Source: Vulcanimicrobiota bacterium (GTDB lineage: Bacteria > Vulcanimicrobiota > Vulcanimicrobiia > Vulcanimicrobiales > Vulcanimicrobiaceae). From it: a DNA stretch of 58,647 bases. The stretch is taken from NCBI GenBank assembly GCA_964658425.1, contig CAZZYZ010000001.1:1-58647 (forward strand), written 5' to 3'. The notes beneath the pieces were generated by a model. It searched no databases, was not told the origin of the DNA, and worked only from the letters and a program-made list of their open reading frames with translations. Made by a program: the position numbers and the translations under genes. Shown in pieces: positions 19,329 to 29,046 of the stretch; position 1 is the first letter of the stretch, and every line of letters begins with the position of its first letter.

Positions 19329-19823
19329 TCACGGAGATCGCTTCGGTAAAACCGGCTGCCACAGTTCGACCTTCGTGCCGTCGAGATCGAGAATCGACGC
19401 GTATTCTCCGAATGCGTCGGCCGAACGTTTGATGATTCGTACGTTCTTCGCTTTCAATCGAGCCGCAAGCGCATCGAGATTATCGACGGTGAGATTGATC
19501 ATGAAATCACGATGTGAATGTGCGAACTCGTCGGCGCCGGCCGGGAACACCGTCCAGATGGCAAGCGGCGGACGTCTCGAACCGTACCGGAAGATCGCGC
19601 CGTTCCATGGCTGGACGGCGAACCCGAGTACGTCGCGATACCACGCTGCGAGCGCTTTCGGATGCGTACTGAGAACGAAGACGCCGCCGATCCCCGTTAC
19701 GTGTCCGGGTGCGTCGGCTGCACTCGCCGCAGCCGGCGATACCGTCAATGTGACGAGTATGGAAAAGATCCAGCGTCGCACGTCGTCCTCCGTACCGCTC
19801 GTCGAATTCCGATCGTTCCGCAT
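19329..19823 (-). CDS. Secreted VOC/glyoxalase-bleomycin-resistance family protein
   Basis: 164-aa ORF. Signal peptide (RRWIFSILVTLTVSPAAASAADA). VOC-fold pattern (GIGGVFV...WYRDVLGF, ILDLDGTKVELWQ). Confidence 0.75.
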   Translation of the reverse strand: MRNDRNSTSGTEDDVRRWIFSILVTLTVSPAAASAADAPGHVTGIGGVFVLSTHPKALAAWYRDVLGFAVQPWNGAIFRYGSRRPPLAIWTVFPAGADEFAHSHRDFMINLTVDNLDALAARLKAKNVRIIKRSADAFGEYASILDLDGTKVELWQPVLPKRSP

Positions 19824-19991: not shown

Positions 19992-20390
19992 ATGTCCGCG
20001 CGCGCCGTCGACCTCATCGATCGCTATCTCCTGGGCGAGCCCGTCTCGAAGCCGGACGTGGTCGCATCGCTGCTGCGGGAACGCACGACCGAACCGGCGG
20101 CGGCGCCGTTCTATCGCGCTTTCGAAGCGGTCGGCGCGCGGGCGGCCGACGAGGCGTTCATCGCGCTGCGTCTCGTCCTTGCAGGGCGCGCTCCCGAGGA
20201 CGACGCCGTCGCGCGTTTGCGAGCGTTCGCGCGGATCGCTCGCGCGTGCGCGACGGGCGACACGACCGGCCTTCGCGCGCTCGAGGGCAAGGAACGCGCT
20301 CACGTTCCGGACCTCCCGTGGTCGGCGGGCCCGGCGGCGCTCGGAGCCGCGGCGAAGGCGGGCTTCCGCGAGGCGCTCGGTGCGCTGTGA
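19992..20390 (+). CDS. Hypothetical protein
   Basis: In-frame ATG 19992 (alternative 19920) of track ORF 19518-20390. Ala/Arg-rich helical protein, no family recognised. Codon bias is compatible with coding. Confidence 0.35.
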   Translation: MSARAVDLIDRYLLGEPVSKPDVVASLLRERTTEPAAAPFYRAFEAVGARAADEAFIALRLVLAGRAPEDDAVARLRAFARIARACATGDTTGLRALEGKERAHVPDLPWSAGPAALGAAAKAGFREALGAL

Positions 20391-20454
20391 TCGCAGGTCC
20401 GGTCGACCATCGGTCGGGAACGCATCCCATCCCCCCGCCCGTTCACTAGGTGTG

Positions 20455-20802
20455 ATGCCTCGGTCGTTCGCCATTCTGCTCGTCGCCGGTGCGCTCTCGT
20501 TCGGGACGCTCGGCTTTGCGATGCCCGCCGCGGTCCGCGGCGATGAGACCGCCGATGCGAAGCCCGCGACGAATGCGGGGACCGTTACCGGGACCGTCTC
20601 GGCGATCGACTATCGCTCGAATACGATGACGCTCGATGCGAAGGGCCGCAAGATCGCCGTAACGATCTTGCCGAGCACGTCGATCCAAGGTGCGGGGAGC
20701 GGCTTCCATTCCTCGACCGACATCAAGCGCGGTGCGCGCGTGACGGTCTTGCTGAGCGAACGCGCGGGGATGTTCTCCGCCCAATTGATCACGCTGCACT
20801 GA
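20455..20802 (+). CDS. Small secreted protein, single OB/beta-barrel-like domain (DUF5666-like)
   Basis: ATG 20455 (MPRSFAILLVAGALSFGTLGFA signal) in track ORF 20179-20802. Pattern GTVSAIDYRSNTMTLDAKGRKIAVTILPSTSI...IKRGARVTV. Confidence 0.6.
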   Translation: MPRSFAILLVAGALSFGTLGFAMPAAVRGDETADAKPATNAGTVTGTVSAIDYRSNTMTLDAKGRKIAVTILPSTSIQGAGSGFHSSTDIKRGARVTVLLSERAGMFSAQLITLH

Positions 20803-20845
20803 CGCAGCCGAAGTATCGCCGTGCCGCCGCTGCGAAGGGCGTGTC

Positions 20846-21862
20846 GTGGCGGAGGTGAGTCTCGCGCGGATCGACCTCTCGTTTGGCCGCGGGCCGAACG
20901 CGGTCGCGGCGTTGCGCGACGTCTCGTTCGACGTCCCGGCCGGCTCCCGGCTCGCGATCCTCGGCCCTTCGGGCTGCGGGAAGACGACGCTGCTGCGCGT
21001 GATCGCCGGCCTCGAACGCCCGTCGCGCGGGACGCTGCGCTTCGACGGCGTCGATATCGACGCGATTCGCCCCGAACGTCGGCGCGTCGGGTTCGTCTTC
21101 GCGAGCGACGCGCTCTTCCCGCATCTCTCGGCGCGCGAGAACATTGCGTACGGCGTTCGCGGTGACGCGCGGCGGCGCATCGACGATGTCGCGGAACGCT
21201 GCCGGATCGGCGAGCTCCTCGAGCGCAAGCCGCGCGAACTCTCGGGCGGCGAACGGCAGCGCGTCGCGCTCGCGCGCGCGCTCGCGAGCGACCCGCGCGT
21301 CCTTCTGCTCGACGAGCCGTTCTCGCGGCTCGATGCGCCGCTTCGGCTCGAACTGCGCCGCGAGATCGCGCGCATCCAACGCGAGGCCGCGCTCACGGCG
21401 ATCGTGGTGACGCACGATCAGGAAGAGGCGCTCGCGCTCGGCGATCGGGTCGCGGTCATGCGGGCGGGCCGGATCGAACAGCTCGGGGCGCCGCGCGCGC
21501 TCGTCGACGACCCCGCGACGGCCTTCGTCGCCGGTTTCGTCGGATCGCCCGCGATGGCGTTCCTGCCGGCGTCCGCGCTCGGCATCACGGATGCGCCCAT
21601 GGGAGCGCTCGCCGGGATCCGTGCCGCCGACGTGCACTTGGGCGCCCCGGGTCGCCTCACGGCGCCGGTCCTCGGCGTCGAGGACGGTGCGGAACGCGCG
21701 ATCGTGCAGCTCGGGTTCGCGGGCGCGACGCTCGGCGCCGTCGTCGCGGGCGGTGAGCCGCGCCCGATCGTCGGCGAACGCGTCCGCTTCGACGTCGATC
21801 CCGATCGCGCGCTGCTCTTCGACGCGGACGGCGCGCGCCTCGAACGTCGAATCCGTGCCTGA
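20846..21862 (+). CDS. ABC transporter ATP-binding protein, MalK/UgpC/MsiK-like (sugar-importer type); no permease or binding-protein gene adjacent
   Basis: 338-aa ORF with a GTG start. Walker A GPSGCGKTT, signature LSGGERQRVALARA, Walker B LLLDEP, and a C-terminal MalK-like regulatory domain. Confidence 0.9.
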   Translation: MAEVSLARIDLSFGRGPNAVAALRDVSFDVPAGSRLAILGPSGCGKTTLLRVIAGLERPSRGTLRFDGVDIDAIRPERRRVGFVFASDALFPHLSARENIAYGVRGDARRRIDDVAERCRIGELLERKPRELSGGERQRVALARALASDPRVLLLDEPFSRLDAPLRLELRREIARIQREAALTAIVVTHDQEEALALGDRVAVMRAGRIEQLGAPRALVDDPATAFVAGFVGSPAMAFLPASALGITDAPMGALAGIRAADVHLGAPGRLTAPVLGVEDGAERAIVQLGFAGATLGAVVAGGEPRPIVGERVRFDVDPDRALLFDADGARLERRIRA

Positions 21863-23354
21863 CCTCGAACGGCTCGCGGGCCGCGTTCTCTGCGTCGGCT
21901 TGCCCGGACCGGAGGCGGACGGCGCGTTGCTCGCGCGGCTGCGCCGGCTCGGGCCCGGCGCGATCGTCCTTTTCGCGCGCAACGTCGAATCGGTCGCCGG
22001 CGCGCGCGCGCTCGTCGGGGTCCTGCGCGCGGCGCTCGCGAGCGACGGCTCCATCGCCGTATGCGTCGATCAGGAGGGTGGGCGCGTCGCGCGGATCCCG
22101 CTCGAGAGCCCGATGCCCGCGATGCTCGCACTCGGCGCGACGGACGATCCCGCGCTCGCCGAGCGGGTCGGCCGCGCGCTTGCGGCGACGCTACGCGCGA
22201 TCGATGCCGACGTCGCGTTCGCACCCGTCCTCGATCTCGCGACGAATCACGCGAGCACGGTCATCGGAACGCGCTCGCTCGGCGAGGATCCGGTCCGCGT
22301 CGCCGTGCTCGGCGCCGCGCTCGTGCGCGGCCTGCAGGCGGGCGGCGTCGTTGCGACGCCCAAGCATTTTCCCGGGCACGGAGCGACCGCGGCCGACTCG
22401 CATACGTCGCTGCCGCGCCTCGACGCGCCGCTCGCGACGCTGCGCGCGCGCGAGTGGGAGCCGTTCCGGGCGGCGTTCGCGGCGGGTGCGCGGGCCGTGA
22501 TGACGGCGCACGTCGTCGCACCCGAGCTCGATCCGGCGCGTCCGGCGACGCTTTCGGCGCGCGTGCTCGGAGCGTTACGCGAGGAGCTCGGGTTCGCGGG
22601 CACGTGCTTCACCGATTGCCTCGAGATGGCGGCCGTCGCCGAGGGCTTCGGCACGGCGCGGGCCGGAGTGCTCGCGTTGCGGGCGGGGGCCGATTGCCTC
22701 GTCGTCAGCGCGGATCTCGATCGCGCCGAAGAGCTCCGGGTCGAGATCGTTCGGGCGGTCCGCGCGGGGACGCTGCCGCTCGCGCGGCTCGAGCGGGCGG
22801 CGGCGCGCGTCGCGAGCCTCGTCCCGGGGCGGACGGCTACGGGCGAACCCGACCCGTCGCCGATCGACGCGGCGGCGGTCGCGAAAGAAGTCGCGGCGCG
22901 CGCGATCGTCACCGTTCGCGGCGAGCCGCGGATCGTCGCGGGTTCCGCGGCGACGGTGATCTCGTTCGAGGGCGGTTCGGGCGACGGGGTCGCGGCGAGT
23001 TCGGGCGAGCGTCCGTCGCTCAGCGCCGCGCTGCGTCGCCGGCGCGTGCGGAGCGAAGCGATGCGCGTCCCGCTCGATCCGAGCCCGGGCGCGGTCGAAG
23101 CGCTGCTCGACGTCCTCGGCGATCAGCCCGGGCGCTCGCTCGCGATCGTCACGCGGCGGGCGCACCTCTATGCGGGTCAGCGTGCAACGATCGGCGCACT
23201 GCTCGCGGCGTTTCCCCACGCGATCGTCGTCTCGGCGCTCGAGCCGTACGACCTCGCGGCGAGCGCCGCCGCGCGGCACGTCGCGTGCACGTTCGGCGAC
23301 GATGCGACGACGATCGATGCGCTCGCCGACGCCCTCGTGAGCGGCGCGCGATGA
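21855..23354 (+). CDS. nagZ: Beta-N-acetylhexosaminidase NagZ (GH3) with C-terminal extension; no signal peptide
   Basis: GTG 21855 in track ORF 21591-23354, overlapping the ATPase stop by 8 nt. Motifs DQEGGRV and KHFPGHG are GH3 N-domain hallmarks. Confidence 0.85.
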   Translation: MPDLERLAGRVLCVGLPGPEADGALLARLRRLGPGAIVLFARNVESVAGARALVGVLRAALASDGSIAVCVDQEGGRVARIPLESPMPAMLALGATDDPALAERVGRALAATLRAIDADVAFAPVLDLATNHASTVIGTRSLGEDPVRVAVLGAALVRGLQAGGVVATPKHFPGHGATAADSHTSLPRLDAPLATLRAREWEPFRAAFAAGARAVMTAHVVAPELDPARPATLSARVLGALREELGFAGTCFTDCLEMAAVAEGFGTARAGVLALRAGADCLVVSADLDRAEELRVEIVRAVRAGTLPLARLERAAARVASLVPGRTATGEPDPSPIDAAAVAKEVAARAIVTVRGEPRIVAGSAATVISFEGGSGDGVAASSGERPSLSAALRRRRVRSEAMRVPLDPSPGAVEALLDVLGDQPGRSLAIVTRRAHLYAGQRATIGALLAAFPHAIVVSALEPYDLAASAAARHVACTFGDDATTIDALADALVSGAR

Positions 23355-24427
23355 ACGCCGCCGATGCGGTCCTGCGCGATGCGTGCGGCTCGCGTTTCAC
23401 CGCGGCGGTCCTACGCGTCGAGCGCGGCGGGCGGCTCGCCTTCGAGCGCGCGTACGGTGCGGTCGACGACGCGCCGGGCGCGCGGCGTATCGACATCGCG
23501 ACGCCCTTCGATCTCGCGTCGCTCACGAAGCTCTTCGTCGCGACCGCCGCACTCGAAGCCGTCGCGCGCGGGGCGCTCGAAGTCGACGCGCCGCTCGCGG
23601 CGCTCGTCCCGGCCTGGCGCGGGACCGCGCACGAACGGGTCACGCTGCGAATGCTGCTCGCGCACGCGTCCGGGATGGCCTCGGGCGCCGATTACCGTAC
23701 GCTGCGCGAGCGCAGCGTCGAGACGTTCGCGATCGAACGCGAACTCGCCGGCGTTCCGGGCGCCGCGGTCATCTACAGCGATCTCGGCTTCATCGCTCTC
23801 GGGGCCGTCGTCGCGCGCGCGAACCGCGCGGCGCTCCCCGCGGCGCTGCGACCGGTCCTCGCGTGTCTGCGAACCGAGGCGACGGCGTATCGGCCCCGCA
23901 ACGACGGCGTGGCCGCGATCCCGGCGACGGAGCTCGACGGATGGCGCGGGCGCGTTCGCGGCTTCGTTCACGACGAGAAGGCGTACCTGATGAACGGCAT
24001 CGCGGGGCACGCCGGGCTCTTCGGAACCGCGCGCGACGTGGCCGCGCTCGCGGAGGCGTATCTCGCGCACGTGCGCGGTCGCGAACACGCGCTCTTGCCG
24101 CCCGCGCTCGCGCGCGACGCGATCGCCGAGCAGGCGGCCGATCCCGTTTTGCGGCGCGGCCTCGGTTGGGCGCTCAAGACGAGCGATGCGAACTCGTGCG
24201 GCGCGGCGATGTCGCGCGAAACGTTCGGCCACACGGGCTTCACGGGGACCTCGGTCTGGGTCGACCCCGCGCGCGATCTGTCGATCGTGTTGCTTACGAA
24301 CGCCGTCTACTTCGGCCGCGGGGATCTGCGCGACGTTCGTGCCGCCGTTTGCGATGCCGTCGCCGCGTGGTCCGATGCCGGAGCGCCTTCGGGCGTCGGC
24401 TGCGAATCGAACGCGGACCTGCGATGA
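23351..24427 (+). CDS. Beta-lactamase/transpeptidase-fold serine hydrolase (class C/AmpH-like); candidate AmiE-type MurNAc-L-Ala amidase; no signal peptide
   Basis: ATG 23351 in track ORF 22061-24427 (ATGA overlap with nagZ). SxxK = SLTK, YSD(L)G, HTGFTG box. Confidence 0.75.
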   Translation: MNAADAVLRDACGSRFTAAVLRVERGGRLAFERAYGAVDDAPGARRIDIATPFDLASLTKLFVATAALEAVARGALEVDAPLAALVPAWRGTAHERVTLRMLLAHASGMASGADYRTLRERSVETFAIERELAGVPGAAVIYSDLGFIALGAVVARANRAALPAALRPVLACLRTEATAYRPRNDGVAAIPATELDGWRGRVRGFVHDEKAYLMNGIAGHAGLFGTARDVAALAEAYLAHVRGREHALLPPALARDAIAEQAADPVLRRGLGWALKTSDANSCGAAMSRETFGHTGFTGTSVWVDPARDLSIVLLTNAVYFGRGDLRDVRAAVCDAVAAWSDAGAPSGVGCESNADLR

Positions 24428-25602
24428 GCGTGCGCGCGATCGGGCTCATGTCGGGGACGTCGCTCGACGGGATCGACGCCGCACGCGTCGCGCTGCGTCC
24501 CCGCGGCGACGGATACGACGTGAACGTTGAAAACTTCATCACCGTACCGTTCGAGGATCCGCTGCGCGAGCGCATCCTCGCGGCGCTCCCGCCGAGCGCG
24601 CCGACCGTCGAGGAGGTGTGCGCGCTCGACGCGGTGCTCGGCGACGCGTTCGCCTCGGCCGCGCGCGAAGCGGCGGCGGGTCTCGCAATCGATTACGTCG
24701 CGACGCACGGGTTGACCGCATTCCATCGCGGCGAGGCCTCGCTCACGCTGCAGATCGGATCGCCGTACGCGATCCGCGACGCCGCGCGGGCGAGCGTGGT
24801 CTTCGATTTTCGACGTGCGGATTGCGCCGCCGGCGGCAACGGCGCGCCGCTCGTCCCGTACGTCGACGGGCTGCTCTTCGCGGCGCCGGGGGAAGACGTC
24901 GTCGCGCTCAATCTCGGCGGGATCGCGAACGTCACGGTGCTGCGCGGCGATCGTTCCCCGAGCGCTGCGATCGCGTTCGATACGGGTCCGGCGAACATGC
25001 TGCTCGACGCTTTCGTACGGGACCGTACGGGTGGCCGCGAGCGCTGCGATCGAGACGGCGCGTACGCGCTGCGCGGCGAGCCCGCTCGCGCGATCGTGAG
25101 CGAGCTCGCGCGCCGCAATGCGGCGTATCTCGACGCGCCGCCGCCGAAATCGACGGGCCGCGAACGTTTCGGGGCGCACGCGCTGCACGCGCACGCCGAT
25201 CTGCTCGCGCCGCTCTCGCTTCACGACGGCTGCGCGACGCTCGTCGCGTTCACCGTCGCGACGATCGGCGATGCGCTCGGCGCTCACGCCCCCGCCGGAG
25301 CGCGCGTGATCGCGAGCGGCGGCGGAGCGCGCAATCCCGCCCTCGTCGCCGCGCTCGCGCGTCGCATCGCGGAGCGCGGCGGGTCGCTCGTGCTCTCGGA
25401 CGCGCTCGGCCTCGACGCGGATGCGAAGGAGGCCGTCGCGTTCGCGGTGCTCGGCTACGAAACGCTGCGCGGCCGTCCGGCGAATCTGCCGAGCGCGACG
25501 GGCGCCCGCCGCCCCGCGATCCTCGGCGCGATCGCTCCGTACGATCTCGCGGCGCTGCTCGACAAGATCGCGCGCGATGCCGCGACGAATGGTGCCGCAT
25601 GA
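24424..25602 (+). CDS. anmK: Anhydro-N-acetylmuramic acid kinase
   Basis: ATG 24424 in track ORF 23383-25602 (ATGA overlap). N-terminus IGLMSGTSLDGIDAA and full-length AnmK pattern. Confidence 0.9.
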   Translation: MSVRAIGLMSGTSLDGIDAARVALRPRGDGYDVNVENFITVPFEDPLRERILAALPPSAPTVEEVCALDAVLGDAFASAAREAAAGLAIDYVATHGLTAFHRGEASLTLQIGSPYAIRDAARASVVFDFRRADCAAGGNGAPLVPYVDGLLFAAPGEDVVALNLGGIANVTVLRGDRSPSAAIAFDTGPANMLLDAFVRDRTGGRERCDRDGAYALRGEPARAIVSELARRNAAYLDAPPPKSTGRERFGAHALHAHADLLAPLSLHDGCATLVAFTVATIGDALGAHAPAGARVIASGGGARNPALVAALARRIAERGGSLVLSDALGLDADAKEAVAFAVLGYETLRGRPANLPSATGARRPAILGAIAPYDLAALLDKIARDAATNGAA

Positions 25603-26498
25603 ACGAGCGGATCGCGGTCGGGATCGATGCGGGCGGCACGGCGACGGCGGCGGCGAGTTCGTGCGGCGGCACGCGCGCGGCGAGCGCGCGCGAGGGTCCG
25701 GCGAACGCGAGTTCGGCCGGGACGACGGCCGCGCTCGCGACGATCATGCGTGCGGTGAGCGCGGTGACCGGCGGCCGCATCCCGAGCGCGCTCTACGTCG
25801 CGGCGGCCGGGGCGGGCCGCGAAGAGATTCGAACGAGTTTGGAAGGCGGTCTTCGCGCCGCGTATCCCGGGGCGCGCCTCGCCGTCGAGAGCGACGTGCG
25901 CGTCGCGCTCCGTGCGACGCTGCCGGCCGGGCCCGGGATCGTGCTGATCGCCGGGACCGGGAGCGTCGCCTACGCGGAATCGGGCGACCGTCGCGCGCGC
26001 GTCGGCGGCGCCGGCTATCTGCTCGGCGACGAGGGTTCGGCGTACGCGATCGGATTCGCGGCGTTGCGGCGGCTCGCGCGCGTCTTCGACGGCCGCGAAC
26101 GCGAAGACGAGACGACCGCGCTCGCGGCTCGCGCGCTCGACGCGCCGGATCGCGACGCGCTGCTGCGCGCGCTCTACGCGAAGCCGGTCGACGTGGCGAC
26201 GATCGCCGCCCTCGCGCCGAGCGTGATCGCATTCGCGGCGAAAGGCAATCGCGTCGCGATGAAGATCGTGCAGGACGCGGCGCGCGAGCTCGGCGACCTC
26301 GTCCTCGCCGCCGCGCGCGCCGCGGAACTGCGCGACGCATCGCCCGCCGTCGTTCTGGCGGGCGGTCTCCTGCGCGAGAACTCCGTGCTCTCGTTTCTGC
26401 TCGAGACGCGGATCGCGGGCGATCTTCCCGGCGCGAACGTGCTGCGCGCGCATGCCGAGCCCGTCGATGCGGCGCTCGCGTTCGCCGAGGCATTGTGA
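25599..26498 (+). CDS. BadF/BadG/BcrA/BcrD-type ATPase = GlcNAc/MurNAc kinase (NagK/MurK-like)
   Basis: ATG 25599 in track ORF 24618-26498 (ATGA overlap). GIDAGGT, AGTGSV and GGAGYLLGDEGSAY motifs. Confidence 0.8.
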   Translation: MNERIAVGIDAGGTATAAASSCGGTRAASAREGPANASSAGTTAALATIMRAVSAVTGGRIPSALYVAAAGAGREEIRTSLEGGLRAAYPGARLAVESDVRVALRATLPAGPGIVLIAGTGSVAYAESGDRRARVGGAGYLLGDEGSAYAIGFAALRRLARVFDGREREDETTALAARALDAPDRDALLRALYAKPVDVATIAALAPSVIAFAAKGNRVAMKIVQDAARELGDLVLAAARAAELRDASPAVVLAGGLLRENSVLSFLLETRIAGDLPGANVLRAHAEPVDAALAFAEAL

Positions 26499-27391
26499 GC
26501 GACGGACTCTCCGCGGTCACGGAGGCGATCAACGCCGCGACGCACGATCTCGATTTGCTCGCGACGGCCGATCTCGTCGCGCTGCTCGGCCGCGAACAGC
26601 GCGCGGCGGCGGAAGCGGTCGAACGCGCGACGCCGCAGATCGCGCGTGCGGTCGATGCGATCTCCGCGCGCCTGCGCGACGGCGGCTCGCTGCATTACGT
26701 CGGCGCGGGGACGAGCGGGCGACTCGCGACGCTCGACGCCGCGGAATGTCCGCCGACGTTCGGGACGCCCGCGAAACTCGTCGTCGCGCACGTCGCCGGG
26801 GGTGCGTCCGCGCTCGTGCGCGCGATCGAGGGCGCCGAAGACGACGCGGCCGCCGGTGCCGCGGCGGTCGCGGCGCTCGCGCCGTGCGACGTCGCCGCGT
26901 GCATCTCCGCGAGCGGCCGCGCGCCGTTCGTCGTGGCCGCGCAGCGCGCCGCACGCGCCCGCGGCGCGCTGACGATTGCGGTGACGAGCGACGCGGATTC
27001 GCCGCTCGCACGCGAAGCCGAGATCGCGATCGCGGTCGCGACCGGCCCCGAGCCGCTCGCCGGTTCGACGCGCCTCAAGGCCGGGACCGCGCAGAAACTC
27101 GTGCTCAATGCCCTCTCCACGGCGACGATGGTTCGGCTCGGAAAAGTCTACGACAACGTGATGATCGACGTCGTCGCCACGAACGCGAAACTGCGCGTGC
27201 GCGCGCGGCTGCTCGTGGAGTCGCTCGCGACGGTCGATGCCGCGGAGGCCGAGCGATTGCTTCGCGCCGCGGACGGCAGCGCGAAGGTCGCCGTCGCGAT
27301 GGCGCGGCTCGGCATCGATGCGCCCGCAGCTCGCGCCGCGCTCGCGGGCGTCGGCGGCTTCCTACGGCCGCTGATGTCGCCGCGCGCGTGA
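26495..27391 (+). CDS. murQ: N-acetylmuramic acid 6-phosphate etherase
   Basis: GTG 26495 in track ORF 25421-27391 (GTGA overlap). SIS-domain signature LHYVGAGTSGRLATLDAAECPPTFG. TRLKAGTAQKLVLN. Confidence 0.92.
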   Translation: MSDGLSAVTEAINAATHDLDLLATADLVALLGREQRAAAEAVERATPQIARAVDAISARLRDGGSLHYVGAGTSGRLATLDAAECPPTFGTPAKLVVAHVAGGASALVRAIEGAEDDAAAGAAAVAALAPCDVAACISASGRAPFVVAAQRAARARGALTIAVTSDADSPLAREAEIAIAVATGPEPLAGSTRLKAGTAQKLVLNALSTATMVRLGKVYDNVMIDVVATNAKLRVRARLLVESLATVDAAEAERLLRAADGSAKVAVAMARLGIDAPAARAALAGVGGFLRPLMSPRA

Positions 27392-29046
27392 GCGCGGCGT
27401 CGCGCGTTCGCGTCGCCGTATCCGCGCTCGCGATTTTCTTCTCGTGGTGCGCGCTCGTACGCACGCCGATGCCGTCGAGCGCCTCGGCGAACGATGCACC
27501 CGCCGCGCCGATCGTTGCGCAAACGGTGTTGCGGTCGATCGCCTTCGTGCCGCTCGACGATCGGCCCGTGACGTTGCAGTTGCCGATCGATCTCGGCACG
27601 ATCGCGGGGCAGCCGGTGCTGACGCCGCCGCGTGCGACGATCGGTAACTATCTGCGGCCAGGCGACGGCGATGCGATCCTACGGTGGCTTACCTCCGATG
27701 CGACCCGCGGTGCGAGCGCGCTCGTCGCGTCGACCGACATGATCGCGTACGGCGGCCTCGTCGCGTCGCGGATACCCGGCATCGCTGCGGACGATGCGTA
27801 CGTACGCCTTCGCGCGCTCGCGGATCTCAAAGCGTCGCGCGAGCTCGGGTTCGTCGGTGCGTTCGCGACGGTGATGCGGCTCGCTCCGACGGGCGTTCCG
27901 CGACTCGGTTTGGCAATGAACTATTATGCGACCGGGCGGACGGTCGATGACCTGCAGGCGTATGCGAACCTCCCCGACCCGCCGGCTTCGGCCGCGGACC
28001 GCGGGAAGGCGACGCGCTTGCGCGCGGCGATCGGCCCGACCGCGCTCGACGCCTATCTCGCGACGCGGCGCCGAAATCGCGCCGTCGACACCTTCGCGCT
28101 CGAGCTCGCGTCGCGCGGCGGTTTCGATCGGCTCGTCATCGGCCAGGACGATGCGGGGCCGGTCGGCCTGCACCTCAGGGACGTCGCGGCCCTCGAAGGG
28201 ACGGCGCGGGATCTCGGCCTCGGCGAGCGTGCCGCGATCGAACCGGGCGCCGACGAACTCGGCATGGTGCTCCTCGCGCAGGCCTTCGCACGCAACGTCG
28301 GCTGGCTGCCGACCGTACGCGTCGTCTATTCGCGGCCCGACGGCGGCGCGGTGAACGATCGCCTCGAATTCGCGCCGATCGACGTGACGATCGCTCGGCT
28401 GATCGCGGGCTGCGGCGCGCGCCGCGTCGCGCGGGACGCCGACGTGACGCTCTACGTACGCGTCGGCGGCACGAACGACGCCGACGAGCGAACGTTCGAG
28501 GACGGCCTGGTCGCCGACGTTCGCGCCGGGCGCAGCGTCACCGTCGCCGATCTCACGTTCCTCGACGGCGAGCCCGGGCCGCAGCAGCGCGAGCTGACCG
28601 AAGCGCTCGTCGCGAGCGGGGTCGCGGGGCGGCTCGACGGTTTCGCGTCGTGGAACACGGATGCGAACACCGTCGGCACGTCGCTCGCGGCCGCGATCGC
28701 GGCGGGCGCGGGGAGGCGCGCGGGGCGATTCGACGCGCGCGCGCTCGCCGCGTTCCTCCTCGATCGCTACGTCGACGATTACGCGTTCCATCAATACGTG
28801 CGGCCCGCGCTCAATCGCACGCTGCGCGCCGACGATATCGATACGACGCTGCTGCTGCCCGAGATCGCACGCGAGGCGGCTTCGCAGAATCGCGGCGATC
28901 TCTGGCCCTACGCGGTCGATTTACTCGCGAGAATTTTTCCGCAATACGGTGACGCCGGGCTCACGATCACGCTGCCGTGGAGCCGGACGTTCGAAACGCA
29001 GATCGACGTCCGCTTACGAGCGGCGAACCCGACGCGGCGCCCGTAA
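27388..29046 (+). CDS. Exported DUF4127-like protein of unknown function
   Basis: GTG 27388 in track ORF 26452-29046 (GTGA overlap with murQ). Signal-peptide-like N-terminus (VAVSALAIFFSWCALV...SASA). The about 550-aa length and the IAFVPLDDRPV motif match my recollection of DUF4127; the family call is from memory only. Confidence 0.6.
   Translation: MSAASRVRVAVSALAIFFSWCALVRTPMPSSASANDAPAAPIVAQTVLRSIAFVPLDDRPVTLQLPIDLGTIAGQPVLTPPRATIGNYLRPGDGDAILRWLTSDATRGASALVASTDMIAYGGLVASRIPGIAADDAYVRLRALADLKASRELGFVGAFATVMRLAPTGVPRLGLAMNYYATGRTVDDLQAYANLPDPPASAADRGKATRLRAAIGPTALDAYLATRRRNRAVDTFALELASRGGFDRLVIGQDDAGPVGLHLRDVAALEGTARDLGLGERAAIEPGADELGMVLLAQAFARNVGWLPTVRVVYSRPDGGAVNDRLEFAPIDVTIARLIAGCGARRVARDADVTLYVRVGGTNDADERTFEDGLVADVRAGRSVTVADLTFLDGEPGPQQRELTEALVASGVAGRLDGFASWNTDANTVGTSLAAAIAAGAGRRAGRFDARALAAFLLDRYVDDYAFHQYVRPALNRTLRADDIDTTLLLPEIAREAASQNRGDLWPYAVDLLARIFPQYGDAGLTITLPWSRTFETQIDVRLRAANPTRRP

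Follow-up and report, generated by a model that had tools for sequence, protein, structure and literature searches.

The window considered here, the whole 58,647-nucleotide stretch of DNA under analysis, is contig C1 of a metagenome-assembled genome (MAG) of the family Vulcanimicrobiaceae (Eremiobacterota) that derives from moss and comprises 3.24 Mb in 350 contigs with a completeness of 91.7%. The segment 20846-29046 is filled by seven open reading frames (ORFs), all of them co-directional on the plus strand, which encode the ATPase of an ATP-binding cassette (ABC) importer, a NagZ-type enzyme of glycoside hydrolase family 3 (GH3), a serine hydrolase with a beta-lactamase fold, the kinase AnmK, a BadF-type sugar kinase, the etherase MurQ and a protein of the DUF4127 family (Table 1). 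It is likely that these seven genes form a single operon which serves to salvage the amino sugars of peptidoglycan, N-acetylglucosamine (GlcNAc) and N-acetylmuramic acid (MurNAc), in an Eremiobacterota cell of the Gram-negative type. Homologues of the proteins encoded in the window are named Vulcanimicrobiaceae or Candidatus Eremiobacterota, and the cultured relative Vulcanimicrobium alpinus combines thin peptidoglycan with an inner membrane and an outer membrane that carries lipopolysaccharide (PMC9758169). Because the envelope of V. alpinus is Gram-negative and the window itself encodes a TolC-family protein, 'exported' is taken to mean periplasmic throughout.

The TGA stop codon of the ATPase gene at 21860-21862 lies beyond the GTG start codon of nagZ at 21855, which results in an overlap of 8 nucleotides (nt), and the junctions that follow consist of three ATGA (23351-23354, 24424-24427 and 25599-25602) and two GTGA sequences (26495-26498 and 27388-27391). 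The seven genes and all of these overlaps had been listed in an earlier note made from the letters of the DNA alone and are reproduced in full. The chosen starts match the respective family profiles in all genes, with profile positions 1-29 falling on residues 1-34, and since the proteins align at the beginnings of their profiles the overlaps are no artefact of choosing the longest ORF. A Shine-Dalgarno sequence is not visible in the 20 nt viewed ahead of most internal starts, while murQ has GAGG; the scarcity of such sequences would fit a mechanism of termination and reinitiation. The seven genes are presumably co-transcribed and translationally coupled.

Table 1 Features of the window (contig C1) and of other contigs of the same MAG
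Feature	Position	Strand	Remarks
ABC importer ATP-binding subunit, orphan	C1:20846-21862	+	338 amino acids (aa); MalK/UgpC/MsiK type
NagZ-type GH3 beta-N-acetylglucosaminidase	C1:21855-23354	+	499 aa; no signal peptide
Class-C beta-lactamase/penicillin-binding protein (PBP)-fold serine hydrolase	C1:23351-24427	+	358 aa; predicted cytoplasmic
AnmK, anhydro-N-acetylmuramic acid (anhMurNAc) kinase	C1:24424-25602	+	392 aa
BadF/BadG-type sugar kinase	C1:25599-26498	+	299 aa
MurQ, MurNAc-6-phosphate (MurNAc-6-P) etherase	C1:26495-27391	+	298 aa
DUF4127 protein, predicted to be exported	C1:27388-29046	+	552 aa; signal peptide about 1-35, domain 51-539
Conserved ORF, first conserved gene of the syntenic block	C1:19992-20390	+	132 aa
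Conserved secreted protein	C1:20455-20802	+	115 aa; signal peptide and beta-rich domain; 43 nt before the start of the ATPase gene
tRNA-Asn (GTT), directly followed by a hairpin-plus-T-run terminator	C1:19092-19195
TolC-family outer-membrane protein	C1:42796-44763
zwf-opcA-pgl cluster	C1:45379-48910	-
CUT1-type importer (SBP_bac_1 and two permeases, no ATPase), then a BrkB-family gene	C23:2939-6156		locus L007
NamZ (DUF1343, exo-beta-N-acetylmuramidase family) homologue	C31:17577-18893		locus L100:6578-7894; N-terminal twin-arginine signal
Lactose/cellobiose-family phosphotransferase system (PTS) EIIC-like gene	C13:21615-22805		locus L099:4616-5806; lone gene beside lexA
PF12831 flavin adenine dinucleotide (FAD) oxidoreductase, second BadF-type kinase and NanE (epimerase of N-acetylmannosamine (ManNAc) 6-phosphate)	C73:11593-14313	-	locus L096; oxidoreductase gene cut by the contig end
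SLH-domain protein	C140:5334-5465
SLH-domain protein	C19:22382-22492
CsaB-like polysaccharide pyruvyl transferase	C82:5591-6418

Enzymes of the operon and their conserved order

Searches with profile hidden Markov models uphold the family assignments of all seven products that had been made without database searches, and the catalytic motifs of the operon enzymes are all intact. The NagZ protein matches Glyco_hydro_3 (PF00933) with 227.6 bits (cut-off 27), and its score of 206.9 bits against the equivalog model NF003740 lies at the threshold of 207. Members of the NagZ family are recognised by the signature KH(F/I)PG(H/L)G...D(S/T)H with its Asp-His dyad, which is present here as KHFPGHGATAADSH at residue 170. 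AnmK aligns over its full length to PF03702 (293 bits, residues 4-372 on profile positions 2-366) and reaches 372.4 bits with the equivalog NF007148, below the cut-off of 387. MurQ scores 348.2 bits with NF003915 (cut-off 168) and 301.4 bits with TIGR00274 (cut-off 302), and it contains the acidic motifs ECPPT at residue 84 and EGAEDD at residue 112. The sugar kinase belongs to the BcrAD_BadFG family (PF01869, 100.7 bits) and stays below the cut-off of the NagK_SO3507 model (79.8 against 370 bits); its solved relatives include a broad-specificity archaeal hexokinase (2e2n, expectation value (E) 1.4e-30) and a MurNAc/GlcNAc kinase (8zo3, E 8e-26). The latter is the best-named solved relative and bears out the earlier description of the protein as MurK-like, making it a candidate GlcNAc and/or MurNAc kinase in the role of NagK or MurK.

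The ATPase and the hydrolase can be placed less precisely. The ATPase (ABC_tran, 135.6 bits) has a Walker A motif at residue 40, LSGG at 132 and Walker B at 152 and resembles the UgpC, GlcV and MalK models best, but as all equivalog cut-offs are missed its substrate cannot be named. The hydrolase (Beta-lactamase PF00144, 145.8 bits) carries the class-C motifs SLTK at residue 57, YSD at 142 and HTG at 294; it is devoid of a signal peptide and its 120 nearest homologues are of like length, about 336-364 aa. No close solved structure was found for it, and the names of its homologues are generic, namely class-C peptidases or DD-carboxypeptidases. The protein is a candidate for an (anh)MurNAc-L-Ala amidase or for a peptidase of the stem peptide.

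The arrangement of the genes was followed through the phylum by a locus scan of one genome per species, seeded with an alignment of 13 sequences, which yielded 80 loci that are essentially all from Eremiobacterota; order was counted in the 56 species-level loci whose sequence reaches 8.6 kb or more ahead of DUF4127. The succession of NagZ, hydrolase, AnmK, kinase, MurQ and DUF4127 is found in the same order and on the same strand in 50 of these 56 loci, and it is maintained across genera at protein identities of 48-78%. The ATPase gene precedes nagZ in about two thirds of the relatives. Starts compatible with a 4-nt overlap are present at the transition from kinase to MurQ in 51/64 loci, from hydrolase to AnmK in 38/58, from ATPase to NagZ in 32/37 and from MurQ to DUF4127 in 22/52, numbers that are approximate because the start nearest to position -4 was taken. 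DUF4127 itself occurs in 145 of the 151 genomes by which the phylum was sampled. The surroundings of the operon in relatives were also searched for NanE, PF12831, the second kinase, NagA and the binding protein of the importer on contig C23, none of which was found there. A relative from Elarobacter (locus L037:4865-6699) has two ORFs of about 300 aa without Pfam match between AnmK and the kinase.

The syntenic block extends upstream of the ATPase gene by two small ORFs, neither of which has a Pfam or NCBIfam match. By tblastn, the 132-aa ORF recurs ahead of the operon and on its strand in about 50 relatives, with up to 76% identity over the N-terminal 70 residues; in 37 relatives the gene of the 115-aa secreted protein comes immediately before that of the ABC ATPase or of NagZ. 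The conserved block begins about 800 nt past the tRNA-Asn gene and its terminator, and the VOC/glyoxalase-like ORF in between (19329-19823, opposite strand) is not kept in relatives. The guanine-plus-cytosine (GC) content of the window is 72-75% from 20000 to 29000 and 63-69% in the flanks. The GC content of third codon positions (GC3) is 0.85-0.88 in the operon and 0.81-0.88 in neighbouring genes, while Ala, Arg, Gly and Pro together account for 42-50% of the operon proteins and 28-38% of housekeeping neighbours. As the operon proteins are rich in these four amino acids, the GC excess is confined to codon positions 1 and 2, and the raised GC of the operon is no evidence of transfer. A genomic island at the tRNA-Asn gene, 1.7 kb upstream, was considered and is ruled out by the equal GC3 and the phylum-wide synteny.

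Further pathway genes in the genome

Several activities that would complement the operon are encoded on other contigs. The earlier note had listed nagA and nagB as missing from the operon's surroundings: NagB was not found anywhere in the MAG either, but nagA is present on contig C134, where it lies directly before a cytochrome oxidase operon. The only Glucosamine_iso match, a conceivable NagB, is the 6-phosphogluconolactonase gene pgl within the zwf-opcA-pgl cluster of the window. Nine matches to SLT domains and two Amidase_3 proteins are present in the genome, as is a NamZ homologue whose twin-arginine signal points to export. The namZ gene is followed by the gene of a small secreted protein, which on comparison is unrelated to the 115-aa protein upstream of the operon and no paralogue of it.

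Other components known from recycling in model bacteria were not detected. AmpG was not found in the MAG, where only a 26-bit match to the major facilitator superfamily (MFS) turned up, nor in any of the five single-contig genomes of the family (0/5); Amidase_2/AmpD and LdcA (S66) are without a match in the MAG and have one match each among the same five genomes (1/5), that to Amidase_2 being weak at 30 bits. Judged by these five Vulcanimicrobiaceae genomes, the absence of AmpG, AmpD and LdcA is a trait of the lineage and not a gap in the MAG. Mpl has no match above cut-off in the MAG, and an AmgK-type (APH) kinase gives no PF01636 match at E <= 1e-5 in this 91.7%-complete assembly. The genome-wide search thereby extends the earlier statement that AmpG, an AmpD-type amidase and AmgK are missing near the operon. 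MurU is indistinguishable from the other NTP_transferase matches in the genome. A PTS of the MurP type was rejected, the only EIIC of the genome being of the lactose/cellobiose family.

With respect to import, no gene for a permease or a binding protein flanks the ATPase gene in the window. The claim that a permease is missing therefore stands for the neighbourhood, but an ATPase of the MalK/UgpC type is a sugar-importer subunit and as such implies a permease, for which the genome offers a candidate. Two importers with SBP_bac_1 binding proteins are present in the assembly, one on contig C16 with its own MalK-like ATPase and one on contig C23 without, the latter being the sole ATPase-less sugar importer of the assembly. 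Since one orphan ATPase and one ATPase-less importer remain, the ATPase of the operon may energise the importer on C23.

A second amino-sugar locus is found on contig C73, where a cytochrome c oxidase operon comes immediately after the genes for the PF12831 oxidoreductase, the second BadF-type kinase and NanE. In other phyla DUF4127 is usually accompanied by these three, whereas here it lies apart from NanE and PF12831 and is joined to the operon with MurQ.

The DUF4127 protein

The last gene of the operon, described beforehand as DUF4127-like, encodes a full member of this family (PF13552, 321.7 bits) in which residues 51-539 cover profile positions 1-488. Its N-terminus is basic at first, continues as a hydrophobic helix that spans residues 3-23 of the model and ends in a cleavage region rich in Ala, and most of the 120 closest homologues share such a signal-type N-terminus, 12 of them with a twin-arginine motif of the RR-x-F/L type. 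In Eremiobacterota the protein is thus predicted to be exported by means of Sec or Tat signals. The family as a whole, which amounts to 1672 clusters at 50% identity, is less uniform: among 115 full-length representatives 45 have a scored signal peptide, 48 start directly at the invariant PLDDRP motif and the rest are unclear. Thirteen positions are invariant in 87 diverse members (P55, D57, R59, R128, R164, R227, D255, D289, R460, D464, W531, R533 and E536), most of them Arg and Asp/Glu.

An AlphaFold model built from the 87 diverse sequences has a mean predicted local distance difference test (pLDDT) score of 93.9. A Foldseek search of the PDB with this model returned nothing above a template-modelling (TM) score of 0.25, and VIA-align produced a flat list of generic alpha/beta matches, all near Z 10, which comprise SGNH/flavodoxin-like folds over residues 46-305, type I periplasmic binding proteins and CheY-like folds over residues 303-447. 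The ESM Atlas returned other DUF4127 clusters only, and in the literature searched no publication mentions DUF4127 or PF13552. The idea that DUF4127 might be the missing solute-binding protein was discarded: about half of the family has no signal peptide, and elsewhere its genes adjoin those of ordinary SBP_bac_1 proteins.

The domain partners of DUF4127 are more informative. In the natural fusion P0147 a signal peptide and a DUF4127 domain are joined to a GH3 domain that bears KHFPGHGSTEIDSH as its NagZ motif; the gene next door likewise encodes an exported GH3 protein. P0129 and P0224 are fusions of LrgB with DUF4127, P0129 having an LrgA gene upstream, P0132 joins DUF4127 to a PQQ-type beta-propeller, and clusters of the ESM Atlas link it to SLH or dockerin domains. 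It can be argued that DUF4127 belongs functionally with NagZ-type enzymes. In the loci of other phyla its neighbours are PF12831 FAD oxidoreductases, CUT1 importers, regulators of the LacI/AraC type, an MFS carrier and DUF4434; in the present genome there is no match to LrgB, nor to a partner protein of about 230 aa seen beside DUF4127 in other phyla.

Among 14 control genomes, DUF4127 is present only in Thermus and Deinococcus, in 2 of the 4 that have SLH domains. The MAG encodes two SLH-domain proteins and a CsaB-like enzyme, which suggests a tether between SLH domains and a pyruvylated wall polymer as in Thermus, Deinococcus and cyanobacteria. The secondary cell-wall polymer bound by SLH proteins contains ManNAc, is often pyruvylated and is linked to MurNAc through O-6, a position that must be free for AnmK, MurK and lytic transglycosylases to act. 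A speculative and on balance rather improbable proposal is that DUF4127 represents a new carbohydrate-active enzyme, located in the periplasm or outside the cell, that strips a substituent from the amino sugars of the wall before they are recycled, with the secondary polymer as its candidate substrate. The leads for it are the export of the protein, the fusions with GH3, SLH, dockerin and LrgB, the presence of SLH, CsaB-like and PF12831-kinase-NanE loci in the genome and the lack of any resembling solved structure apart from generic alpha/beta folds; in addition, invariant Arg and Asp/Glu residues are to be expected for an anionic sugar substrate. Alternatively, DUF4127 may be a non-canonical muropeptide amidase or an exo-glycosidase that works beside NagZ.

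A salvage route, its alternatives and its counterparts elsewhere

Taken together, the gene content points to the E. coli-type MurNAc route of AnmK, MurQ and an unlinked NagA, a reading that is probably right for the most part. In the periplasm, lytic transglycosylases, amidases and the exported NamZ and DUF4127 proteins would release fragments of the wall, and those taken up may include GlcNAc-anhMurNAc(-peptide), MurNAc and GlcNAc; the exported NamZ and the two Amidase_3 proteins would alter which fragments are likely to be imported. Because AmpG is absent, it is proposed that import probably proceeds via an ABC importer of the CUT1 type, of which the first gene of the operon would supply the ATPase, the genes of the binding protein and permeases lying at another site. 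In the cytoplasm NagZ would strip off GlcNAc, and the beta-lactamase-fold hydrolase would remove or trim the stem peptide and so replace the absent AmpD. AnmK would then convert anhMurNAc to MurNAc-6-P, the BadF-type kinase would phosphorylate the freed GlcNAc and/or reducing MurNAc, and MurQ would turn MurNAc-6-P into GlcNAc-6-phosphate (GlcNAc-6-P) and D-lactate. NagA would finally yield glucosamine 6-phosphate (GlcN-6-P), which, since no NagB was found, most likely returns to uridine diphosphate (UDP)-GlcNAc rather than entering glycolysis. In this scheme, what the hydrolase, the kinase and DUF4127 act on is presumed. The salvage route had previously been thought to be cytoplasmic, which fits the five coherent middle genes and the NagZ and hydrolase proteins without signal peptides; however, as DUF4127 carries a signal peptide, the route would not be wholly cytoplasmic.

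A number of observations weigh against this scheme or against parts of it, and the first concern the hydrolase. Its best curated model is PBP4B/YfeW (NF002968), the amidase role follows from pathway logic rather than from a comparison with B. subtilis AmiE, and the enzyme could instead be a PBP4B/YfeW-like DD-/LD-peptidase or an aminopeptidase which trims imported stem peptides and is no MurNAc-L-Ala amidase, the bond between sugar and peptide being cut in the periplasm by Amidase_3 proteins or by DUF4127. The two Amidase_3 genes and the generic peptidase labels of its homologues would agree with this, and with LdcA absent a peptide-trimming activity is also wanting. It nevertheless seems doubtful, as the PBP4B match reaches only 99.2 bits and not the cut-off of 385, and intact muropeptides, if they enter, would require a cytoplasmic amidase ahead of AnmK. 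Both amiE of B. subtilis and the PBP4B-like yfeW of E. coli are found beside murQ, the B. subtilis cluster being documented in PMC5061867.

The place of the ATPase in the route is likewise contested. It is absent from the operon of about a third of the relatives, and the pairing with the importer on C23 was reached by elimination within a MAG of 91.7% completeness. The binding protein of the C23 importer is similar to generic binders of sugars or trehalose-maltose and shares only 24-26% identity with the binding proteins found beside DUF4127 elsewhere. The ATPase could therefore be a general energiser akin to MsiK or just a conserved neighbour, with wall fragments entering by another carrier, for which the lactose/cellobiose-family EIIC might be invoked. 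Such a role is conceivable but not favoured, since the ATPase gene overlaps nagZ by 8 nt with an overlap-compatible start in most relatives that possess it, and in the whole assembly a single orphan ATPase faces a single CUT1 importer that lacks one.

As for DUF4127, its loci in other phyla feature PF12831 proteins, importers and regulators rather than MurQ, so its role may have nothing to do with MurNAc. A few relatives have MurQ and DUF4127 split by an opposite-strand GNAT gene or by a gene for pyruvate carboxylase, and MurQ is kept by 5/5 related genomes that have no DUF4127 (4/4 when the unpublished G116 is excluded), from which it follows that DUF4127 would be accessory to the route and not a requirement for it.

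A different view of the whole operon is that it serves mainly to feed on peptidoglycan left by other bacteria that died in the moss or peat, whose walls would be dismantled by the exported NamZ and DUF4127 and whose sugars, once imported, would be handled by the cytoplasmic enzymes. Both proteins are indeed exported according to their signals, that of NamZ being of the Tat type, the genome comes from a moss metagenome, and DUF4127 of other phyla is found in sugar-utilisation loci together with importers, SusC/D and regulators as well as fused to dockerin or SLH domains. On the other hand, GlcN-6-P would be left without an obvious catabolic exit as no NagB was found, AnmK points to 1,6-anhydro products that arise from lytic transglycosylases of the cell itself, and near-universal presence in the phylum fits a housekeeping function. 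Feeding on foreign walls as the main purpose is therefore judged unlikely, although it does not exclude recycling of the cell's own wall, nor is it excluded by it. That the genes are merely adjacent, separately transcribed and unrelated in role, their overlaps reflecting compact high-GC packing, is highly improbable: the stretch is present only in four DNA runs of one moss-metagenome study with no RNA run listed, and no promoter or terminator pattern marks the limits of the unit, but the order is kept across genera at the identities given above and five of the products catalyse consecutive steps of one known pathway.

Recycling of the amino sugars by the operon, which is the preferred reading, can be compared with four known systems. 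In organisation, the operon is closest to the B. subtilis recycling cluster murQ-murR-murP-amiE-nagZ-namZ(ybbC), in which NagZ and AmiE work outside the cell (PMC5061867; PMC8054146). Both unite MurQ, a NagZ-type GH3 enzyme and a beta-lactamase-fold hydrolase in one MurNAc-salvage locus, the NamZ homologue being encoded elsewhere in the present genome. In contrast to the B. subtilis enzymes, NagZ and the hydrolase have no signal peptides here; MurNAc enters B. subtilis by the PTS MurP, whereas the Eremiobacterota cluster has neither a MurP-type PTS nor MurR and adds AnmK, the BadF-type kinase, the ABC ATPase and DUF4127. In terms of chemistry, the operon resembles E. coli-type recycling, which relies on AmpG, NagZ, AmpD, LdcA, Mpl, AnmK, MurQ, NagK and NagA and includes a murQ-murP-yfeW operon (PMC13691567). 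The conversion of anhMurNAc to MurNAc-6-P and GlcNAc-6-P and a cytoplasmic NagZ are common to both. The genes are scattered in E. coli and form one operon here, AmpG, AmpD, LdcA, Mpl and NagB were not found here, and the kinase is of the BadF type and not of the ROK type.

The MurK-MurQ modules of Clostridium acetobutylicum and Tannerella forsythia, with the solved kinases 8zo3 and 8ow9 (PMC7670621), also place a BadF/BadG-family kinase beside MurQ. Unlike the present operon, they take up reducing MurNAc through dedicated transporters, and AnmK, NagZ, the serine hydrolase and DUF4127 lie outside them. The orphan ATPase has its counterpart in a different setting. MsiK of Streptomyces is an orphan ATPase that serves multiple sugar importers, and like it the MalK-type ATPase of the operon is encoded apart from its presumed binding protein and permeases; it differs in being the first gene of a specific catabolic operon in an assembly with one ATPase-less importer. 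What sets the locus apart from the known systems is that AnmK, NagZ, a cytoplasmic hydrolase, a BadF-type kinase and MurQ are united in one overlapping operon. It further differs from them in being without AmpG, AmpD, LdcA, Mpl and MurP, in being led by an orphan ATPase and in ending with an exported DUF4127 protein.

Knowledge of peptidoglycan recycling comes from a small number of model bacteria, and only one member of the Eremiobacterota, a phylum abundant in soil, peat and moss, is in culture. The operon indicates that this lineage would run the MurQ route without AmpG, AmpD, LdcA and Mpl, and the candidates for the replacement parts, namely an ABC importer driven by the orphan ATPase, the beta-lactamase-fold hydrolase and the exported DUF4127 protein, are brought together in one conserved unit. 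For DUF4127, the linkage to MurQ and the fusion to a NagZ-type domain define a set of substrates with which the first biochemical work on this family may begin.

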